29,375 bases of DNA from the IMG/VR virus record IMGVR_UViG_2563366852_000005, one strand, 5' to 3'. Under the pieces are notes generated by a model. The model was not told the DNA's origin. It ran no database searches and saw only the letters and a program-made list of their open reading frames with translations. The position numbers were made by a program, and so were the translations under genes. Numbering within the stretch: the first letter of the stretch is position 1; each line of letters begins with the position of its first letter. Positions 1-29,375 of the stretch are shown one piece after another. The stretch is from a virus. Lineage: Duplodnaviria > Heunggongvirae > Uroviricota > Caudoviricetes.

Positions 1-408
1 ATGGCAACTCTTAAATCAATAATGGCAATAACCACCTTAATAATTTCACTCAATGCATACGCAAACACGAATGACATTAAAACTCTTCAAAAACAACTGA
101 AACCATGGCAACCACTGGAAATCACAACAAAAGATAGCTCTCTTACCGTTGTTCTCCCTGGTAAAAAAATCACATCTGAAGCCTATAATCATTTAATTAT
201 GTCCGGTGTATGCACCCCACTTTGGACACATGACGCTCCTTCTTCATTTTTAAAAAATGTAAGTGAAATCAATATAGTTAACCAATATAAGTCTATTGGA
301 TATACCTTTGAAGACCCATTGACCACATGCAATGAAATCGCTCCGTTAATGGAAAAACCTGCACAAACAGTGGTGTTATCCAAAACTCATACCTACACAG
401 GTAAGTAA
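1..408 (+). CDS. Hypothetical secreted protein; N-terminal signal-peptide-like segment (MATLKSIMAITTLIISLNAYA), AT-rich; lies outside the ogr end of the prophage
   Basis: ORF track; positively charged n-region, hydrophobic core, AYA-like cleavage site; low GC compared with phage genes. Start at window base 1, so the true start could lie upstream. Confidence 0.45.
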   Translation: MATLKSIMAITTLIISLNAYANTNDIKTLQKQLKPWQPLEITTKDSSLTVVLPGKKITSEAYNHLIMSGVCTPLWTHDAPSSFLKNVSEINIVNQYKSIGYTFEDPLTTCNEIAPLMEKPAQTVVLSKTHTYTGK

Positions 409-414
409 ATAGCT

Positions 415-455
415 CAAATAAGATAAAGCCCCTCGACTGAGGGGCTTTCTGTTTG
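415..455. terminator. Bidirectional intrinsic terminator hairpin (stem AGCCCCTC / GAGGGGCT, loop GACT) with T-rich tracts on both strands; between the flanking ORF and ogr
   Basis: Perfect 8-bp GC-rich inverted repeat at 427..446 followed by TTCTGTTTG on plus and TTATCTTATTT on minus strand. Confidence 0.7.
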
Positions 456-458
456 TAA

Positions 459-677
459 TTACATCCACATAATTTGCTGCCCTGACGGCAACGGGTGCGG
501 TCTTACGGCGTGGACTTCTCCCGGCTTCACGATGTATCGCTGTACCGACTCATAAGTGATGAACGTGGCGCTGCAATTCACGTTCTGACACTGGTGATAA
601 CGCTCTTTTGTCGTGTCAGTGATATAGCGGCTTGTACGCGCATGTGCGGCATGCTGGCATAAAGGACAATGAAACAT
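459..677 (-). CDS. ogr: Ogr late-gene transcriptional activator (zinc-finger, 72 aa)
   Basis: Translation MFHCPLCQHAAHARTSRYITDTTKERYHQCQ... matches recalled P2 Ogr; CxxC...CxxC zinc finger; GGAAGAGG Shine-Dalgarno upstream of this ATG; longer ORF-track start rejected. Confidence 0.93.
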   Translation of the reverse strand: MFHCPLCQHAAHARTSRYITDTTKERYHQCQNVNCSATFITYESVQRYIVKPGEVHAVRPHPLPSGQQIMWM

Positions 678-758
678 CGCGAGCACCTCTTCCGGTTGTG
701 TTGATGGTGCCATTTTAGTTAATTTACCCTTATAAAACAAACAGATAAATAAAACACA

Positions 759-1922
759 TCACTCATCATCTTCTGTTTCGTACTCCACATCAGAAAGCCT
801 GACCTCAAGCTCTAAGGACGTCGTGAAGCCGCTATTATTCAGAAAATGTGTCACCTTAGTGATTGTCCAGTCCTGCTCGTCTATGACGCGCTTAAAGCCT
901 GACACTTTAACCGGTGTTTCCGTGTAAATATCTGCCCGACCGGTAGCCAGGCTGATGGAGAACTCCGCCACACCCCGTTGCAGTTTATCCCACTTCGCCT
1001 GGGCGGCACGCATGGCCTGTGCTTTCGTGGCATATACCGTGGTCAGGGCAAAAACGTTGTCAGCCTCACCGGCCATGTATTCACCTTCGCGCGCTTCCGG
1101 TACTTTTGGCGCTTTCTTCTGCGTGACTGGTTTCGCTTTCGGGTGCTCCAGTGCGCGCAGGTGTTTCTCTTTCTTTTTGCGTTTCAGTTTTACCTTCTGC
1201 TTTTGCGGCTTCGGGTCTTTGGTGTGTAACCACTTTGCCGTTACGCCGGTATAGGCTCCACGGTCAGCAATCGCAAAATGATGGCGGTCGCCGTCGCTGC
1301 GGGTTATGGTAATCTGCGGGATTTTCTTACCGCTGGCCGTCACCCCCTGCCCCGCCTTAAGAAATAACAGTTTTCCCATTTTTACCGACACCTCACCGCC
1401 GTTGCGTTCAGCAAGGCGGGTCAGGAATTTTGCATCAGACTCCTGCGACTGGTCGATGTGCGGGATTTTAATTCCGGCCAGTGACGGAGCAACACTGGCT
1501 TCCAGCTTGTTACGGGAGGCTATCGCCTCAACAATCGTACCGAGCGTGGTGTCATGCCAGGAGCCTTCCCGGCGGGAATTGAGCGTCCCGCGAAAATCTG
1601 CACTCCGGGCGCGGATGGTGACCACATCCGGCGCGCCCCGGTGTTCTACCTCATCAACGGTAAATTTCCCTTTGCATACCAGGGCAAAACCTTTCCAGCC
1701 GATATACACCGTCAGGACAGCGCCACGAATCGGCAGCTCGACCTGCCCGTCGGCATCGTTCAGTTCAATATCAAGCTGGTCAGCCTCAAAGCCCCGGTTA
1801 TCCGTCAGAGTCATGCTCATCAGACGGTCGCTGATATTGCCGGAAATATCCCTGCTGTCGAGCATCAGCATGTAATCCGGCGTCAGCGTACTGCCTGCAT
1901 CAAATGTCAGCGCATCCAGCAT
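759..1922 (-). CDS. D: Tail protein D (P2 gpD)
   Basis: 387 aa ORF in the conserved P2 position downstream of U; N-terminus MLDALTFDAGSTLTPDYMLMLDSRDISG as in P2 gpD. Confidence 0.9.
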   Translation of the reverse strand: MLDALTFDAGSTLTPDYMLMLDSRDISGNISDRLMSMTLTDNRGFEADQLDIELNDADGQVELPIRGAVLTVYIGWKGFALVCKGKFTVDEVEHRGAPDVVTIRARSADFRGTLNSRREGSWHDTTLGTIVEAIASRNKLEASVAPSLAGIKIPHIDQSQESDAKFLTRLAERNGGEVSVKMGKLLFLKAGQGVTASGKKIPQITITRSDGDRHHFAIADRGAYTGVTAKWLHTKDPKPQKQKVKLKRKKKEKHLRALEHPKAKPVTQKKAPKVPEAREGEYMAGEADNVFALTTVYATKAQAMRAAQAKWDKLQRGVAEFSISLATGRADIYTETPVKVSGFKRVIDEQDWTITKVTHFLNNSGFTTSLELEVRLSDVEYETEDDE

Positions 1923-2415: not shown

Positions 2416-4863
2416 TTAACCGTCATGCATCATGCTGGCACGGGCGCGCGCACGTTTGTCCCGCTCGTATTTTTCGAGCGCATCCTGTAACTGGCGGTCG
2501 AGCTGTGTCCCCGGCGCAGTACCACCCGTCAGGCTGATGTGATATTCGTTTTTACTCTGGTCTACATAAGAGCGGCCAGCCGGTGCCGTGACCGGCTGAT
2601 AAGCCTGATAACCTGCATAAGAGCTGGTCGCCGGAATATAACCACCGCTGCCATACGTGGCGGCTTGAGTTCTGGCGGCGGTCTGGTCAAGTGTGTCTGA
2701 CTCTTTGTTGATGACACCGAGTTTTTCCAGTACCCAGTCAATACCACTGCGCAGTTTGTTGAACGCATTAAGCGGCAGCATCAGCGCGTCAGCCAGTGCC
2801 TGCCCGAACATGACGCCCGTGTCACGGCAACGGTTCAGGGTGTCCTGGGTGGCTTTGACCGGGGCAATCAGGTTTTTAAACCACTGCCACGCGGCCTGTA
2901 ACTTTTCACCCAGCCAGTCAAACACCGGTTTAAGTGGCGTGAACAGTTCCCCCACCGGCGCAAATGCCGCTTTCAGCCCTTCAACCACACCGCCAAAAAA
3001 TGCGCTGACAGGCTCCCAGTATTTACGGATAAGTAACGCCCCGGCGACAATGGCGGCCACCACGGCCACTACCGGCCAGCTAATCGCCCCGATGGCCGTC
3101 ATAACGGCACTGCCAACCGTCGTGAAGATTGCCCCCATTGCGCCTGCTGCTGCGATAATGGCATTGATGCCGGTGATAACTGGCCAGGCTACGAGGCCAA
3201 TGGCACCGATGACACCAATCAGCGCCAGTGCACCACCGACAATGAGGCCGATGGTTGACGCCAGTGATTTGTTTTTCTGGATCCAGCCGTCGAGTTTTAA
3301 CACATACTTTGTGGCCGTCTGCGTGAGATTACGCAGTGCGCCTTCCTGCTGGTCAAACAGGTCAGTGCCAACAGCCTGATACGCTGACTGAAACGATTTA
3401 AAGTCGCCGCCGAGGTTATCCTGCATAACCTTAACCAGTTCTTCTGTTTTACCGTCAGATTCTTTAATCAACCTGGTCAGATTATCCAGCTTGCCGCTGG
3501 CTGCTGCTGTCATTAATACACTTGCTGATGAGCTGGCCTCTTCGCCGAATATTGTTTTCATGTATTCAGCGCGCTGCCCTGTTCCTAGTTTATTTTTTTC
3601 AAAACTCCGCTGAATTTCTTTCAGAATTGAAAAGACAGGTCGCGTATTACCTTTGCTGTCAGTTGTCTTTACGCCAAGCTCTTTAATAGCGTCATACGCT
3701 TTCCCGGTTGGTGCCTGCAAACGACTCAGTACTGCTCGACTTCCTGTGCCAGCCATAGACCCACTGATATTTGCATCGTGTAATGCACCTAACATTGCTG
3801 CTGTTTCTTCCAGGCTGACACCTGCATCTTTTGCCACTGGCCCGACATAGGTAAGTGAATCACTTAGTCCCTCGAATGTGGCTTGCGATTTATTCATCGT
3901 CATTGAAATAACATCAGCAATATGGGAAGCCTTATCGTCAGCAAGCCCGAATGCCGATTTTGTCCCAATAAGTAAAGTGGCGTTTTCCTCCATCGTTTTC
4001 TTGTTTGCCAGTGACATATTCAAAATGGCCGGTGTTTGTGCCAGGATGCCATTTTTATCCGCTCCTGATTTAGCCACGATGATTTGAGCTGCTGCTGCAT
4101 CATCCGCCGAGGCGGCGGTATTATCGCCGAGCTGGCGCGCCTGCTTGCGGAGCGCGGCCATTTCGGCAGAGTCTTTTGCCACTCCGAGCACGGCCTGTAA
4201 TTCTGAGTTTTTCTGCGCAAACTCATAACCGGGCATCAGCAGCTTAACACCAGCCATCGTTCCCGCCGCCGCAATCCCCACACCGGCAGCGCCCACTGAG
4301 GCCATATTTCCGGCCAGTTCCTTTCCGGCCTGATAACGCTGTTTTACTGCATTAAGTTTTGCCTGTTGCGCACTGACACGCGCCAGCGCGTCACGCTGAC
4401 GGTTAAGCTGTGCGGTGGTTTCACTGATACGGTTTTTCAGTCCCTGCTCATCATGTGCAAGATTGCGGGTATTAATTCCCACAGCGGCCAGTTCCCGCTG
4501 CTGGCGTTTAACGGAATCCGTCAGGCGGTTATATTTCGCCTGTAAGTCCTCCGCCGCACGCTTTGCGGATTCCAGCACTTTCGCCTGAGCACGGGTCGGA
4601 CGTTCAGTGTTTTTAAACTGTGTGGCAAGTGCTTCGGCTTCCTGCCGTGCCTTTTCAAGTGCATGACCAGTCACGGCAAGCTGTGCGCTGGTCTTGCGAA
4701 ATCCCTCAATACGGGATGCGTGACCGTTCAGCTCGCGCAGTGATTTTTGTGTTTCCCGGATATCCCCCGACAGCGACTTGCTCGCTGTGCGGATGGATTT
4801 AAACGGGCGGGATGCCTGGTCAACAGCCCTGAGCAATACCTGTAATTTTACATTGTTACTCAT
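2416..4863 (-). CDS. T: Tail tape measure protein (P2 gpT)
   Basis: 815 aa, coiled-coil N-terminal half, Gly/Ala-rich hydrophobic central segment, position after E/E'. Confidence 0.92.
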   Translation of the reverse strand: MSNNVKLQVLLRAVDQASRPFKSIRTASKSLSGDIRETQKSLRELNGHASRIEGFRKTSAQLAVTGHALEKARQEAEALATQFKNTERPTRAQAKVLESAKRAAEDLQAKYNRLTDSVKRQQRELAAVGINTRNLAHDEQGLKNRISETTAQLNRQRDALARVSAQQAKLNAVKQRYQAGKELAGNMASVGAAGVGIAAAGTMAGVKLLMPGYEFAQKNSELQAVLGVAKDSAEMAALRKQARQLGDNTAASADDAAAAQIIVAKSGADKNGILAQTPAILNMSLANKKTMEENATLLIGTKSAFGLADDKASHIADVISMTMNKSQATFEGLSDSLTYVGPVAKDAGVSLEETAAMLGALHDANISGSMAGTGSRAVLSRLQAPTGKAYDAIKELGVKTTDSKGNTRPVFSILKEIQRSFEKNKLGTGQRAEYMKTIFGEEASSSASVLMTAAASGKLDNLTRLIKESDGKTEELVKVMQDNLGGDFKSFQSAYQAVGTDLFDQQEGALRNLTQTATKYVLKLDGWIQKNKSLASTIGLIVGGALALIGVIGAIGLVAWPVITGINAIIAAAGAMGAIFTTVGSAVMTAIGAISWPVVAVVAAIVAGALLIRKYWEPVSAFFGGVVEGLKAAFAPVGELFTPLKPVFDWLGEKLQAAWQWFKNLIAPVKATQDTLNRCRDTGVMFGQALADALMLPLNAFNKLRSGIDWVLEKLGVINKESDTLDQTAARTQAATYGSGGYIPATSSYAGYQAYQPVTAPAGRSYVDQSKNEYHISLTGGTAPGTQLDRQLQDALEKYERDKRARARASMMHDG

Positions 4864-7061: not shown

Positions 7062-7193
7062 CCGTTTAACTCCGTGGTTAATGGGTGAGTGGTATTTTCA
7101 GTTGTGCCGGAGATGTCAGGCTATTTGTCCCGGTTGGCTAATCAACAGCACAACCACCGGTAAAGAAAAGGCGGGCAATCAGCCCGCCTGTGT
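7062..7193 (-). promoter_or_regulatory. G-FI intergenic region: expected Ogr-dependent late promoter for the FI-FII-E-T-U-D operon; empty Z/fun cargo slot
   Basis: Position relative to P2 operon structure; only 132 bp and no ORF. Confidence 0.5.
7162..7190 (-). terminator. Intrinsic terminator after G (stem GGCGGGC/GCCCGCC, loop, then TTTTCTTT on the minus strand)
   Basis: 7-bp GC stem at 7170..7188 immediately downstream of the G stop, followed by a T-tract on the transcribed strand. Confidence 0.7.
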
Positions 7194-22376: not shown

Positions 22377-22796
22377 CTAATCATCTTCTAAAGGTGGAAT
22401 TTTGATGCCACTAATTAGCAGTACTTTCCGGTATGCCTCAAAAATAATGTTGTGTGTTTTTTGTAAATCATCGAGCATTTTTTGCCGTCCTGCTGGGGTA
22501 TCTTTGGCGAAATTATGAGCGCGAAAAAAATCATGTGCCAAGTAGTTTCGAGCTGATAGAGCCAGTTCTACATGTTGTAGCGTTTCATCATCTGCCACCC
22601 CTTTTTTACGCAATAAATTGCTTAGTCTGCCTAATGTTAACTTATCAAATTTTAAGAATTTTTCTTTTAATGTTGGAATGTCTTCGCCTTGCTTCATTTC
22701 ATGTTCGATAAGGACATTAATCAGTTCAACTTCCAACAATTGTGCAGCTTCTGAGGTGTAACCGAACTTCCAAAAGACTTCATCAAGCGTTGCCAT
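22377..22796 (-). CDS. Hypothetical small alpha-helical protein with an HEPN-type R-N-x3-H motif (RNYLAH); candidate RNase toxin or abortive-infection effector in the tin/old cargo slot
   Basis: 139 aa from ATG at 22796 (ORF-track start 22805 is GTG); GAGTGG Shine-Dalgarno-like element upstream; about 35% GC versus about 52% for the phage backbone; motif read from translation. Confidence 0.6.
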   Translation of the reverse strand: MATLDEVFWKFGYTSEAAQLLEVELINVLIEHEMKQGEDIPTLKEKFLKFDKLTLGRLSNLLRKKGVADDETLQHVELALSARNYLAHDFFRAHNFAKDTPAGRQKMLDDLQKTHNIIFEAYRKVLLISGIKIPPLEDD

Positions 22797-22933
22797 GTGT
22801 TCCACTCAAGATAAATGCAGGTTATGAAAAAGAAGAATGATGATGGAAATTCCAGATGAAGTCTAACGCCTCGCTCCGCTCGTTGTTCAACCCCGCCAGC
22901 CCTGAAAACAAGTTTCACGACTGGCGGCGTTCT
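22797..22933 (-). promoter_or_regulatory. Putative own promoter/leader region for the AT-rich HEPN-like gene
   Basis: 137-nt non-coding gap with a GC-rich to AT-rich transition upstream of the ORF; no clear consensus -35/-10 assignable by eye. Confidence 0.3.
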
Positions 22934-23140
22934 CTATCGTCTGCGTGGTGGTGGCGTAACTCTTGATTGACCGATATGGTTAAACCGCCCGTAATTATCC
23001 CGGACTATTTCGGCACACACGACCAGCTCATCGGGCGTCAGATTTTCGTTGACCATAATCCGCTGTAAACGCTGAACAATAGCCATCAGCTTGATATTTT
23101 TAGTTTTATGGTGCGGTATCTCGCCTGGTATTCTGTGCAT
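22934..23140 (-). CDS. Small hypothetical protein (68 aa), translationally coupled to the upstream ASCH-like gene (TAATG overlap)
   Basis: ATG at 23138..23140 overlaps the TAA of the upstream gene; helical-looking sequence MHRIPGEIPHHKTKNIKLMAIVQRLQRIMVNENLTPDELVV... Confidence 0.4.
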   Translation of the reverse strand: MHRIPGEIPHHKTKNIKLMAIVQRLQRIMVNENLTPDELVVCAEIVRDNYGRFNHIGQSRVTPPPRRR

Positions 23141-23592
23141 TATCCAAGCCACCCGTTTTGCTGTGCACGCTCCATCTGTTCATCTGAATAGTTCCATGCT
23201 CCATCCGTGGCAACCATTGCCCCGCCAGACATCCCCGTCTCTGGTTCATACATAACAGCAAGGCCGAGCTGATGCATAATTTCATGATTAATTCTGAATA
23301 CCAGACCACGCTCACTAAGTTCTTTCCAGTTCACAATCTCATATGCGCCTGTATTAAGCCGCTCAATACTTAGCAAGACATAATCTTCCAGCCAGTCTGA
23401 CAGGTCAGTAACATCTGTTATCCGGGCTTCAACCTTTCGCCCCGTATACACACCCTGCACCCATTCATGCAAAATCAACGTGTCCCCGCGCTCATAATTA
23501 CGGTCATTTTTCCGAAACTCTGCACGTTTATGTCCTTCCAGCACAAGGTCGAAATATTTTGCGTGCAGCTTTACCTCGTGAATTTTTGCCAT
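23140..23592 (-). CDS. ASCH/PUA-like (DUF3850-like) domain protein with a C-terminal HEIMH (HExxH) motif, translationally coupled to A
   Basis: 150 aa from ATG at 23590..23592 overlapping the A stop (TAATG); N-terminal pattern KIHEVKLHAKYFDLVLEGHKRAEFRKNDRNYERGDTLILHEW...YTGR resembles ASCH-like phage proteins; C-terminal INHEIMHQLG. Confidence 0.6.
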   Translation of the reverse strand: MAKIHEVKLHAKYFDLVLEGHKRAEFRKNDRNYERGDTLILHEWVQGVYTGRKVEARITDVTDLSDWLEDYVLLSIERLNTGAYEIVNWKELSERGLVFRINHEIMHQLGLAVMYEPETGMSGGAMVATDGAWNYSDEQMERAQQNGWLG

Positions 23593-25877
23593 TATGTCCA
23601 CTCCATTACTGTTGAGAATCCCGGCCACTCATCAGCGACCGGATACGTGAATTTTTTCCCGTCGTAATTTACGGTTGCCCCACGCGCCAGCGCCTCAAGC
23701 TCCCATCGCTGAGGCCTGATACCGTTCTGAGCAAGGTCAACACGGATACGGGTAATTTGCATTCTTTCCGACCGGGTCAGTCTGGCCGATGGTGCAATTT
23801 CATGCGGTTTTAACGGGCTTCCGTTTCTTTGCTGACGATTTGGTGTTCTCATGTCGTGTTTTAATGCGCCCCTGAGCGCCCTCACGACCTCCTGGTCATT
23901 CCATTCGATAACACCGTCATCAACCAGATTAAGCACTGCTGCGGCGTGTTCAGAAGGTGTGGGAGCCGGTAACGAAGCATCACCGCCGGTGAACTTTCCA
24001 CAGTTATTGACAGGACTCCGAGGCGCGGCGATGCCGCTTTTTAAAGTCAAAGGCTCAACGACCGGAACTTTCGGCACAATGCGCCAGTCCGTCGTTCTGG
24101 TGATATGAATATGTCGCGCGCCGAGATGCGGCGCGTAAATGCCGACCACTCTCTCGACTTCTTCTTCGTACTCGTTAACGTCTTCCGACGGGCTACGGGC
24201 AACCCTGACAGTCTGACAATCGCGCGGGACATTTGCCCCACCCTGCGCGCTGATATACAACGCAAAATCACCACTGTCTGCGGCGGCGCGTGCAGCCTCG
24301 ACGCGCTCGTCAAACTCATCAGCAATGCTGACGCCGCGAGGCAATTTGCGTAGTTCACGGTAAGCCCCCATTGTCGGCAGACCAACCGTTTTAAATTGCG
24401 GAATGCGCCACGTTGACGCCCATGCGGTAACAGCCGCAGCAGTGTCTTTCAGCGGCCTGCCGGTATCGTTATCGAGCTGACCATCCAGTGCATAGCCGTC
24501 GATGTTTTTTGAGATGTATTTCGCGATATACCCCGCAGCACCGCCCCGGTTAAGGTGTTTTGCCTGAAAACGGTTTCGCGCGGCTCCTCTTTCGTCGCCA
24601 TCCTCTTTGAGCGCGTAGCGACGCATGATTTCGATAATCTGGTTACGCTGGCGTGGATTACAAAAAAGCATCATATGCCAGTGCGGCGTTCCGTCGTGGT
24701 GTGGTTCAACAACACGCAAACCGTAGGCCTGTAAATCATTATCCTTGAATGCCGTGCGCATCAGGCTCCAGATACGGCAGAGATAACGCTGCGCATCCTT
24801 TGGATTAAATGCCTCATCGTTCCAGCCGTGATTTAGCTGGACGGTTTTACTTTCGCCTTTTCTGACCTGACGTGTCGGGTGATACTTTGACGGCGCGGTA
24901 AGCGTGATAAACATCCCCACATCACCCTCTGCGGCGGCGTAACGCTCAATACCGGCGATGGTGTTCATCAGCTCCATCCGGCGAATTTCTGGATTTGAAA
25001 TACTGCCCATCACCTTACTGATAAGGTCGATGCGCTCGCCGGTTTCCTTGTTTTCAAGGTCACACGATTTAAGAAATTCCAGATTTGCCTGGCGGCGTGC
25101 ACGTACATCACGAATGGCATGTTTACTGGCATAAGGAGAACGGTCTTTATTGACCTCCCCGACAGCAATCAGTAACGCCTCATGCCAGCGCATGCGCTGG
25201 CCTTTGAGCTGATGAGTCCACCACTCATCGTTAAACAGACGGGCAATGGCAGAATACGCCTGCCTCGTGGTCATCTGTCCTTTACGGTATTTTTTCCAGT
25301 AGAGCGGGGAAATATTGAAAGCACGTGCAGCGCCAGCAACATGACCATACAGGTGAGCCTGCGCCTCATCCGTAAACAGCGATTCTTTTTCGCCATGCGC
25401 ATCCACCCAGGCATCGCTGAGTTCCTCATACATCATGAAAAGCTGCGATGAGATACGGGCGGCAAACTTTTTCAGCTCTTTGTCATTCATTCCAGGCAGG
25501 CGCGCATAGTGGTCACGCTCTGCCAGAAACAGCAACGACGCGTCGGTGTTCATTTCATGGCGCTGATTCACACGCTCAATGCGCGGCCATAAACGACGCT
25601 GAAAAGTGGATGTGAGGAAATAAAACCCGTGCACCGGGCTTTTATTGCGCCGGATGTAGTCATAGCGTGAAGTAAACAGCGAGCGCAAAAAGTAAGGCAG
25701 GCGGTTAATCGTGGATAAAACACCTTGCACCTGACGCATCTCGTCACGTGTAAGGGGTCTTTCGCGCCCGACAGCCTCGCGTGGCGCGTTCCATGCATAA
25801 GCACCGGTAAACGCCTTACCGGTGCCTGCGGCAAATGCTGACGGAGGGACAAAACGCCCGGAGGCTTTAACGGCCAT
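23592..25877 (-). CDS. A: Replication initiation protein A (rolling-circle nickase, 761 aa)
   Basis: MAVKASGRFVPPSAFAAGTGK...; start chosen to match P2 gpA length; ORF-track start at 25919 is an upstream extension. Confidence 0.93.
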   Translation of the reverse strand: MAVKASGRFVPPSAFAAGTGKAFTGAYAWNAPREAVGRERPLTRDEMRQVQGVLSTINRLPYFLRSLFTSRYDYIRRNKSPVHGFYFLTSTFQRRLWPRIERVNQRHEMNTDASLLFLAERDHYARLPGMNDKELKKFAARISSQLFMMYEELSDAWVDAHGEKESLFTDEAQAHLYGHVAGAARAFNISPLYWKKYRKGQMTTRQAYSAIARLFNDEWWTHQLKGQRMRWHEALLIAVGEVNKDRSPYASKHAIRDVRARRQANLEFLKSCDLENKETGERIDLISKVMGSISNPEIRRMELMNTIAGIERYAAAEGDVGMFITLTAPSKYHPTRQVRKGESKTVQLNHGWNDEAFNPKDAQRYLCRIWSLMRTAFKDNDLQAYGLRVVEPHHDGTPHWHMMLFCNPRQRNQIIEIMRRYALKEDGDERGAARNRFQAKHLNRGGAAGYIAKYISKNIDGYALDGQLDNDTGRPLKDTAAAVTAWASTWRIPQFKTVGLPTMGAYRELRKLPRGVSIADEFDERVEAARAAADSGDFALYISAQGGANVPRDCQTVRVARSPSEDVNEYEEEVERVVGIYAPHLGARHIHITRTTDWRIVPKVPVVEPLTLKSGIAAPRSPVNNCGKFTGGDASLPAPTPSEHAAAVLNLVDDGVIEWNDQEVVRALRGALKHDMRTPNRQQRNGSPLKPHEIAPSARLTRSERMQITRIRVDLAQNGIRPQRWELEALARGATVNYDGKKFTYPVADEWPGFSTVMEWT

Positions 25878-28394: not shown

Positions 28395-29375
28395 ATGGCA
28401 ATTAAGAAGCTCGATGATGGTCGCTATGAAGTGGACATTAGACCTCGCGGTCGCGATGGAAAACGCATCCGCAGGAAGTTTGAGAGAAAGGCTGAAGCAG
28501 TTGCATTTGAGCGATACACAATTGCCAATGCCAGCCAGAAAGAATGGGGAGGCCAGCGAGCAGACCGCCGAACGTTGACTGAGTTATTGGACATCTGGTG
28601 GAAATATCACGGACAAAACCATGAGCATGGAACAAAAGAGTTTAATCATCTGCTCAAAACTATCAGTGGAATAGGTGATATACCAGTTAGCCGGATGAGT
28701 AAAAGGGCTTTGATGGATTATCGCTCCGTGCGGCTACGTGATGGCATTAGTGCTGCAACGATAAATCGTGACATGTACCGATTGTCAGGCATGTTCACTA
28801 AATTAATTCAATTGGATGAATTTTCCGGGCAACATCCAATTCACGGACTGCCGCCACTGGCGGAGACCAATCCGGAAATGACGTTTCTGGAAAAATCAGA
28901 AATCGAAAAACTGTTAAATGTTTTGGTTGGTGATGACTTACTGGTCGCGCTTTTATGCCTAAGCACTGGCGGAAGATGGACGGAAGTTGCCACGCTAAAA
29001 CCAGCGCAGATTACAAGTTGTAGAGTTACCTTTTTGAAAACCAAAAACGGTAAAAAGCGAACCGTGCCGATTTCTGAGGAACTAGAGAAAAAAGTTAAAG
29101 AGGAGGCCAGCGCCAAATTGTTCAAAGTTGATTATGAGAAGTTTTGCGGGATTTTACGCAGAGTGAAACCTGATATACCACCCAATCAGGCAACCCACAT
29201 CCTGCGGCATACATTCGCAAGCCATTTCATGATGAATGGGGGCAATATAATTGCACTGCAACAGATTCTGGGACATGCGAGCATCCAGCAGACGATGGCC
29301 TACGCGCATCTTGCGCCGGACTACCTACAGAATGCCGTCGCGCTGAATCCTCTAAAAGGCGGAGTGACGTTATAA
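28395..29375 (+). CDS. int: Tyrosine integrase (P2 Int-like); alternative upstream ATG at 28365
   Basis: MAIKKLDDGRYEVDIRPRGRDGKRIRRKF...; C-terminal HxxR...Y catalytic region (ILRHTFASHF...AYAHL); stop is the last codon of the window. Confidence 0.92.
   Translation: MAIKKLDDGRYEVDIRPRGRDGKRIRRKFERKAEAVAFERYTIANASQKEWGGQRADRRTLTELLDIWWKYHGQNHEHGTKEFNHLLKTISGIGDIPVSRMSKRALMDYRSVRLRDGISAATINRDMYRLSGMFTKLIQLDEFSGQHPIHGLPPLAETNPEMTFLEKSEIEKLLNVLVGDDLLVALLCLSTGGRWTEVATLKPAQITSCRVTFLKTKNGKKRTVPISEELEKKVKEEASAKLFKVDYEKFCGILRRVKPDIPPNQATHILRHTFASHFMMNGGNIIALQQILGHASIQQTMAYAHLAPDYLQNAVALNPLKGGVTL

Follow-up and report, generated by a model that had tools for sequence, protein, structure and literature searches.

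A terminator and a moron cassette between ogr and the attachment site of a P2-like prophage at fieF-cpxP

The first 458 nucleotides of the DNA analysed here, a stretch of 29,375 nucleotides from a virus of the Caudoviricetes (the window), hold an AT-rich open reading frame (ORF) and a strong hairpin next to the late-gene activator gene ogr. They raise the question whether the prophage stops at this hairpin, with the ORF as a neighbouring host gene, or whether it continues beyond the ORF. An earlier note, made from the sequence alone, had taken the hairpin region (409-458) as the left prophage boundary, and had offered two identities for the ORF, a host island gene or a terminal moron. The results presented below make it very probable that positions 1-458 are the inner attL arm of a P2-like (Peduovirus) prophage of the Wphi/L-413C/P37 type, consisting of a terminator and a moron cassette, and not its edge. 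Coordinates of the features under discussion are collected in Table 1.

Table 1. Features at the two ends of the prophage, from left to right; negative positions count back from window base 1 and positions with a plus sign count onward from the window end.
Feature	Position	Strand	Place or basis
attL core	-209..-163 relative to window base 1 (L013 2792-2838)		outside window
Int P-arm repeats, GTCCACA x2	-115..-92 relative to base 1		outside window
Upstream hairpin T2	-85..-62 relative to base 1 (L013 2916-2939)		outside window, between arm repeats and ORF
TATAAC box	-40..-35 relative to base 1		outside window; TATAA(C/A) conserved
AAGGA ribosome-binding site	-11..-7 relative to base 1		outside window; conserved
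Moron gene, 135-aa predicted secreted protein, PHROG 3807	1..408	+	ORF list
Intrinsic terminator hairpin T1	425..448	both	terminator scan, fold z-scores, P2 identity
ogr, late-gene activator, 72-aa zinc finger	459..677	-	Pfam Ogr_Delta 1.1e-21
gpD tail/late control gene, first structural gene past ogr	759..1922	-	ORF; PF05954 in identical loci
P2-type tyrosine integrase gene (int), Wphi/L-413C/P37 specificity	28395..29375	+	Pfam Int_N and Phage_integrase
P' arm repeats, GTCCACA x2	+14..+34 past window end		outside window
attR core	+116..+162 past window end/int stop (L018 3097-3143)		outside window, then cpxP

Attachment site and prophage ends

The window was placed at KE137293.1:75672-105046 (GCA_000408805.1), because its left-hand 3408 bases matched L013 and its right-hand 2981 bases matched L018, both parts of that contig, without a single mismatch. 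In this source contig, a perfect 47-bp direct repeat, GATAAAAAAAACCCCCACATCATGTGGGGGAAGACAGGGATGGTGTC, was present at both prophage ends, and the same 47-mer was the longest word common to the 400 nt left and the 319 nt right of the window. The left copy is separated from base 1 by 162 nt, and 115 nt lie between the right copy and the stop of int, which is also the last base of the window. The boundary given previously was corrected: the prophage runs 209 nt past the left and 162 nt past the right window end. The search for a direct repeat beyond int, which the earlier note had recommended, had a clear outcome, though the left copy lies outside positions 1-458. Instead of just beyond ogr, where it had been expected, the attachment core was found left of the ORF, 163-209 nt before base 1, a location that the earlier note had itself named as contradicting its reading.

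The prophage is flanked by the host genes fieF, to its left, and cpxP, to its right, and the site is intergenic. A tRNA gene as integration target was ruled out, since the site is intergenic and the number of tRNA and tmRNA genes within the window was zero. On each side of the core, two copies of GTCCACA occur 10-11 bp apart; the arm consensus of P2-type phages is tgTGGaCa (Nilsson et al. 2011, PMC3448106). Read on the strand of cpxP, the 47-mer includes CCCCCACATGATGTGGGGG and then T8, and in a terminator scan it was scored as a terminator located ~25-35 nt beyond the cpxP stop. Because the 47-mer is that terminator, the phage integrates into the cpxP terminator and brings a replacement copy. 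In the proposed mechanism, Int would recombine the phage core with its identical 47-bp counterpart in the fieF-cpxP interval and, as core and terminator are identical, cpxP would still have a terminator after integration.

Comparison with empty sites, as also advised in the earlier note, agreed with this placement. An attB site reconstructed by joining the host flanks via one core copy (L025, about 376-523) was continuous in 4593 of the 5426 complete E. coli genomes, with fieF joined to cpxP and the ORF lacking in between. The integrase type of the window was found in 793 of these 5426 genomes. The fieF-cpxP site was occupied in ~15% of the complete E. coli genomes (793-833/5426).

Both Wphi and L-413C have been reported to integrate at MG1655 coordinate 4104392, with identical cores (Nilsson et al. 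2011, PMC3448106), and the E. coli W genome paper located a Wphi prophage between cpxP and fieF (PMC3032704). The module of the present prophage shares with these phages the 47-bp core, which occurs once each in the attP regions of P37, Wphi and L-413C, the arm repeats on both sides of the core and the fieF-cpxP host site. Int of the window is 98% identical in amino-acid sequence to Int of the isolated Yersinia phage P37, whose int/attP DNA in turn shares 91-96% identity with the corresponding DNA of Wphi and L-413C. The attachment site of this prophage is the already described Wphi/L-413C-type site within the cpxP terminator.

The expectation that the integration site would differ from that of P2 was borne out: the P2 core is absent and the 47-bp fieF-cpxP core is found in its place. 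In the corresponding region of P2 (NC_001895, 24036-25475), the hairpin beside ogr is base-identical and the same succession of terminator, P arm, core, P' arm and int is found. However, the core of P2 is a sequence of 27 nt (AAAAAATAAGCCCGTGTAAGGGAGATT), whereas the 47-bp core found here coincides with the cpxP terminator, and P2 carries no cargo from terminator to P arm.

In Citrobacter freundii (L034/L035, 2400-3840), an extra island of ~1.2 kb extends from fieF to the attL core (3793-3839). A degenerate second core-like sequence (about 2485-2525) marks its start, and its two genes encode a 187-aa protein, in which an HEMMHxWQH metallopeptidase-like motif occurs, and a 119-aa lipoprotein. 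In appearance, the island is a tandem occupant of the same attB or a remnant there, and its gene pair is possibly a toxin/immunity pair.

The hairpin beside ogr and the cargo cassette

The low-GC ORF and the hairpin that the earlier note had described were both confirmed. The ORF starts with an ATG at base 1, comprises 135 codons and has a GC content of 36%, compared with 53% for the whole window. The stem of the hairpin, here called T1, is formed by AAAGCCCCTC-GACT-GAGGGGCTTT, with 10 pairs of which six are G-C. T1 folded with -21.7 kcal/mol, corresponding, relative to shuffled sequence, to z = -5.2 on the plus strand and z = -3.8 on the minus strand, and was returned by the terminator scan on both strands, with T-rich tails on both. 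It is situated 17 nt past the ORF stop and 11 nt past the ogr stop. T1 is base-identical to P2 24265-24288, which the P2 record labels 'rho-independent terminator for ogr transcript and F operon', and homology with P2 ends right past the stem; beyond this terminator, the P2 record lists the Int P arm, an IHF site and the attP core. On the ogr side, the U-tract of T1 (ATCTTATTTG) is weaker than that of P2 (TTTTTTGTCG). T1 is the conserved ogr/F-operon terminator and neither an attachment core nor the end of the prophage. It may end both convergent transcripts, that of ogr and the F operon on the minus strand and that of the moron gene on the plus strand. The ogr counterpart is annotated as ogrK in E. 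coli genomes, and the annotation of gpD is 'phage late control D'.

The reading in which the hairpin at 409-458 is or holds the attachment core, so that the prophage stops there and the ORF is a host or island gene outside it, draws on the P2 attP core lying just ~100 nt past the ogr stop and on a GC content of the ORF that is unlike that of the phage. It must nevertheless be considered extremely improbable. A comparison of window positions 400-470 with the 2 kb right of int yielded common words of at most 8 nt, while the perfect 47-bp repeat lies farther out on both sides. The claimed likeness of the hairpin to the P2 core dissolved on comparison: a search of the window for the 27-nt P2 core, allowing up to three mismatches, found nothing, and the letters in common are limited to AAATAAG and GCCC. 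A function as prophage boundary is equally at odds with the identity of the hairpin to the annotated P2 terminator, with the genome of P37, in which the ORF lies between int and ogr, and with empty sites, which link fieF to cpxP without the ORF. A core right after ogr is what P2 and Wphi have; this rule fails here because a cargo cassette parts the terminator from the arm.

That the cassette belongs to the phage followed from isolated phages. Window positions 1-760 were 98.6% identical to P37 (NC_070907), which has the order int, 324 bp, ORF, ogr, D, with the 47-mer occurring once in the 324-bp spacer, and a version with 84% identity is present in a second isolated phage, GMS190. Since the ORF is present in the genomes of P37 and GMS190, it is phage-carried and not a host gene; of the two identities initially considered for it, moron was upheld and host gene was not. 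More than 30 other P2-like phages share int/attP as far as the arm repeat ...GCGTCCACATCGA and then have the ogr terminator within ~10 nt; Wphi, L-413C, P24B2, fiAA91-ss and R18C are among the phages without the cassette. Relative to Wphi and L-413C, in which the P arm and the ogr terminator have no gene between them, the cassette of ~505 bp in the window, P37 and GMS190 is a clean insertion, which starts about 91 nt ahead of base 1 and stops at approximately base 415-419.

A second hairpin, T2, consists of AAAGCCCC-AAGCATAT-GGGGCTTT followed by a T-run, and its stem sequence is as in T1. T1 and T2 have this stem (AAAGCCCC/GGGGCTTT) in common and differ in their loops. In Klebsiella, the upstream hairpin is closely like the ogr terminator of Wphi.

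The organisation, read leftward from ogr, comprises the terminator at 425-448, the AT-rich cassette, the Int arm repeats and the 47-bp att core, the cassette itself being made up of a gene for a putatively secreted protein, a short leader with TATAA(C/A) and AAGGA, and the second terminator hairpin, T2. One flanking terminator would stop int/C read-through in the circular form, and the other would stop read-through from ogr and the F operon into the cassette. Terminator-like hairpins flank the ORF in all six lineages; because hairpins are kept on both sides, the cargo gene appears insulated from both directions. No sigma-70 consensus promoter passed the scan of the 60-nt leader upstream of the ORF. 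As this leader shows just TATAA(C/A) and AAGGA, we infer, and only infer, that the cassette is expressed on its own, from a weak promoter. An Ogr-dependent late promoter 5' of the ORF was rejected upon inspection: a TGT-N-ACA dyad occurs just once, as the Int arm repeat, where its spacing is N13 and its position does not fit.

The distribution of the ORF was followed in complete genomes and assemblies. An ORF-ogr junction was detected in 44 of the 5426 complete E. coli genomes, and a scan of species-representative genomes for the ORF returned one locus. Exact matches to the protein occur in many NCBI assemblies, and the nine matches listed all share the order sbp, pfkA, fieF, ~287 bp, ORF, ogr, D. 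Homologues with 62-70% identity were found in the same slot in Escherichia sp. MOD1-EC7003, Salmonella, Citrobacter, Klebsiella aerogenes and Serratia ficaria. Each is preceded, ~160 nt on its 5' side, by a core-like sequence (identified by regular expression; the variant core of Serratia was read by eye), and both hairpins are kept with all these homologues, with variation in stem and loop sequences. The simplest explanation for the strict association of the ORF with the cpxP site is its location ~160 nt from attP, so that it moves together with the int/att module. Values of dN/dS for the ORF were 0.10-0.19, indicating purifying selection.

In strain MOD1-EC7003 (L006, 4001-4402), the ORF encodes 133 aa and is 74% identical to that of the window at the DNA level and 70% at the protein level, whereas the adjacent ogr and gpD genes show 97-99% identity to the window; this difference indicates that cassette alleles are exchanged by recombination. 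The stem common to T1 and T2 and the Wphi-like upstream hairpin of Klebsiella further suggest that the cassette may have entered, or may swap, via recombination at the terminator hairpins. The MOD1 allele class (84% identity over 1-760) comprises about 27 complete E. coli genomes and phage GMS190.

The cassette is a moron, that is, phage-carried cargo under selection. Known morons and lysogenic-conversion genes include old, tin and Z/fun of P2 and the morons of the lambda family. The cassette resembles these in being a single gene of deviant GC content that some collinear genomes have and others lack, with terminators on both sides and a position at the border of modules. It differs in its slot, between the ogr terminator and the P arm of attP, and not at gpQ-gpA or Z/fun, the two classic cargo hotspots of P2. 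In the window, the Z/fun hotspot (FI to G, 7062-7193) is empty, so that the prophage has very little cargo. The gpQ-gpA hotspot contains a 142-aa ORF without Pfam match (22377-22805, minus strand), which adjoins a DUF3850/ASCH gene (23140-23628).

The encoded protein and its family

The ORF product begins with MATLKSIMAITTLIISLNAYA|NT, in which a basic n-region, 12 consecutive hydrophobic residues and an A-x-A cleavage motif can be recognised and a lipobox is lacking (inspection and heuristic). The mature part of ~114 aa contains two conserved cysteines, C71 and C110. These features lead us to infer export by Sec to the periplasm, where the protein probably forms one disulfide.

A full-length match (E 2e-60) was obtained to PHROG 3807, a family of unknown function. 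The ORF protein is 99% identical in amino-acid sequence to gp16 of P37 (YP_010663903.1), which has no assigned function. No match to Pfam or NCBIfam was found; a cobyric acid synthase match at 0.15 was discarded as spurious. PADLOC-DB returned no defence model at E values up to 1. Close relatives fell into 13 clusters, all of them enterobacterial 'hypothetical proteins'. In a profile search of 1.84 billion representatives, 178 relatives (representatives of clusters at 50% identity) were recovered, mostly of 120-138 aa, while the extra matches from a second, word-indexed profile-based protein search were confined to short metagenomic contigs.

Among 97 aligned relatives, an N-terminal hydrophobic run was present in 92, and 92 had exactly two cysteines in the mature part. 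P38, C71, N94, G100 and C110 were conserved at 90% or more in this 97-member alignment. In a few relatives, the domain is C-terminal, preceded by pentapeptide repeats, bPH or SH3_3; in one, a VasI (T6SS) domain comes after it. Distant relatives that combine the domain of ~100 aa with VasI, pentapeptide repeats, SH3_3 or a bacterial PH domain are P0127, P0060, P0112 and P0163. A Pfam scan of the 97 relatives gave no convincing family and a profile search of PDB sequences gave nothing under E 0.1.

Structure prediction by AlphaFold2 reached a pLDDT of 41 when based on the 13 close homologues alone, and the alignment with the 97 diverse relatives was used instead. The resulting alpha/beta model had a pLDDT of 88.3 and a pTM of 0.77; ten-residue blocks from 31 to 130 averaged ~94-98 and low pLDDT was limited to residues 1-22. 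In a Foldseek search of the model against the PDB, the best E value was 0.066, with no neighbour among solved structures. Matches in the BFVD were all uncharacterised phage proteins, including B9A7A8 of Serratia phage KSP20 (E 3e-13, 37% identity), whose predicted fold matches that of the ORF protein and which has no assigned function. The family is sizeable and uncharacterised, and its members are predicted to consist of a secreted alpha/beta domain with a single disulfide. As no Pfam entry exists for it, the family could be entered as a new domain of unknown function.

Possible roles of the cassette

Our best guess is that the product is a lysogenic-conversion factor that would leave the cytoplasm via Sec and act at the cell envelope. 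Two more specific roles can be set beside it, each of them possible but on the unlikely side. In one, the cassette provides defence or superinfection exclusion at the envelope, through a periplasmic protein that stops DNA entry or cell-wall penetration. P2-like phages cluster anti-phage genes in a few variable hotspots, minor ones of which lie beside an att site (PMC13586616; see also PMC9122126). A role in defence would fit this richness in anti-phage genes, the predicted secretion of the product, the presence/absence polymorphism of the gene (44 of the 5426 genomes, compared with 793 that have the integrase type) and the swapping of alleles between phages that are otherwise 97-99% identical. 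It is countered by the lack of a match to any PADLOC model, by dN/dS values of 0.1-0.2 that give no sign of an arms race, and by the wider family, whose 178 representatives at 50% identity are mostly without recognisable phage context and occur fused to unrelated domains.

In the other role, the protein would be a host-fitness or envelope factor unrelated to phages, such as a periplasmic binding protein, a chaperone or an enzyme inhibitor that might be linked to the neighbouring Cpx envelope-stress locus; this, too, can only be proposed tentatively. The family is widespread as a stand-alone secreted domain, with one relative fused to VasI (T6SS) and another to SH3_3, and all close homologues found are in prophages at fieF-cpxP, in five genera. 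Yet the linkage to cpxP is explained more simply by a gene that lies ~160 nt from attP and moves with the int/att module, and searches against PDB sequences and structures showed no similarity to characterised proteins.

The Wphi-type attachment site, the P2 ogr terminator and the moron are all of known kinds, and the protein family alone is uncharacterised. What the data do establish for the gene is that it is conserved and selected, that its product is predicted to be secreted, and that it moves with a P2-like int/att module in at least five enterobacterial genera. A broader proposal, in which the gap between ogr and attP is a third, so far overlooked cargo slot of P2-like phages and its occupant belongs to an undescribed secreted family that works in the periplasm, either in a new type of superinfection exclusion or defence or in modulating envelope stress near Cpx, is doubtful as a whole at present. 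If the protein proves to be an envelope exclusion or fitness factor, the catalogue of P2 cargo would gain a hotspot and a protein family that are both new.
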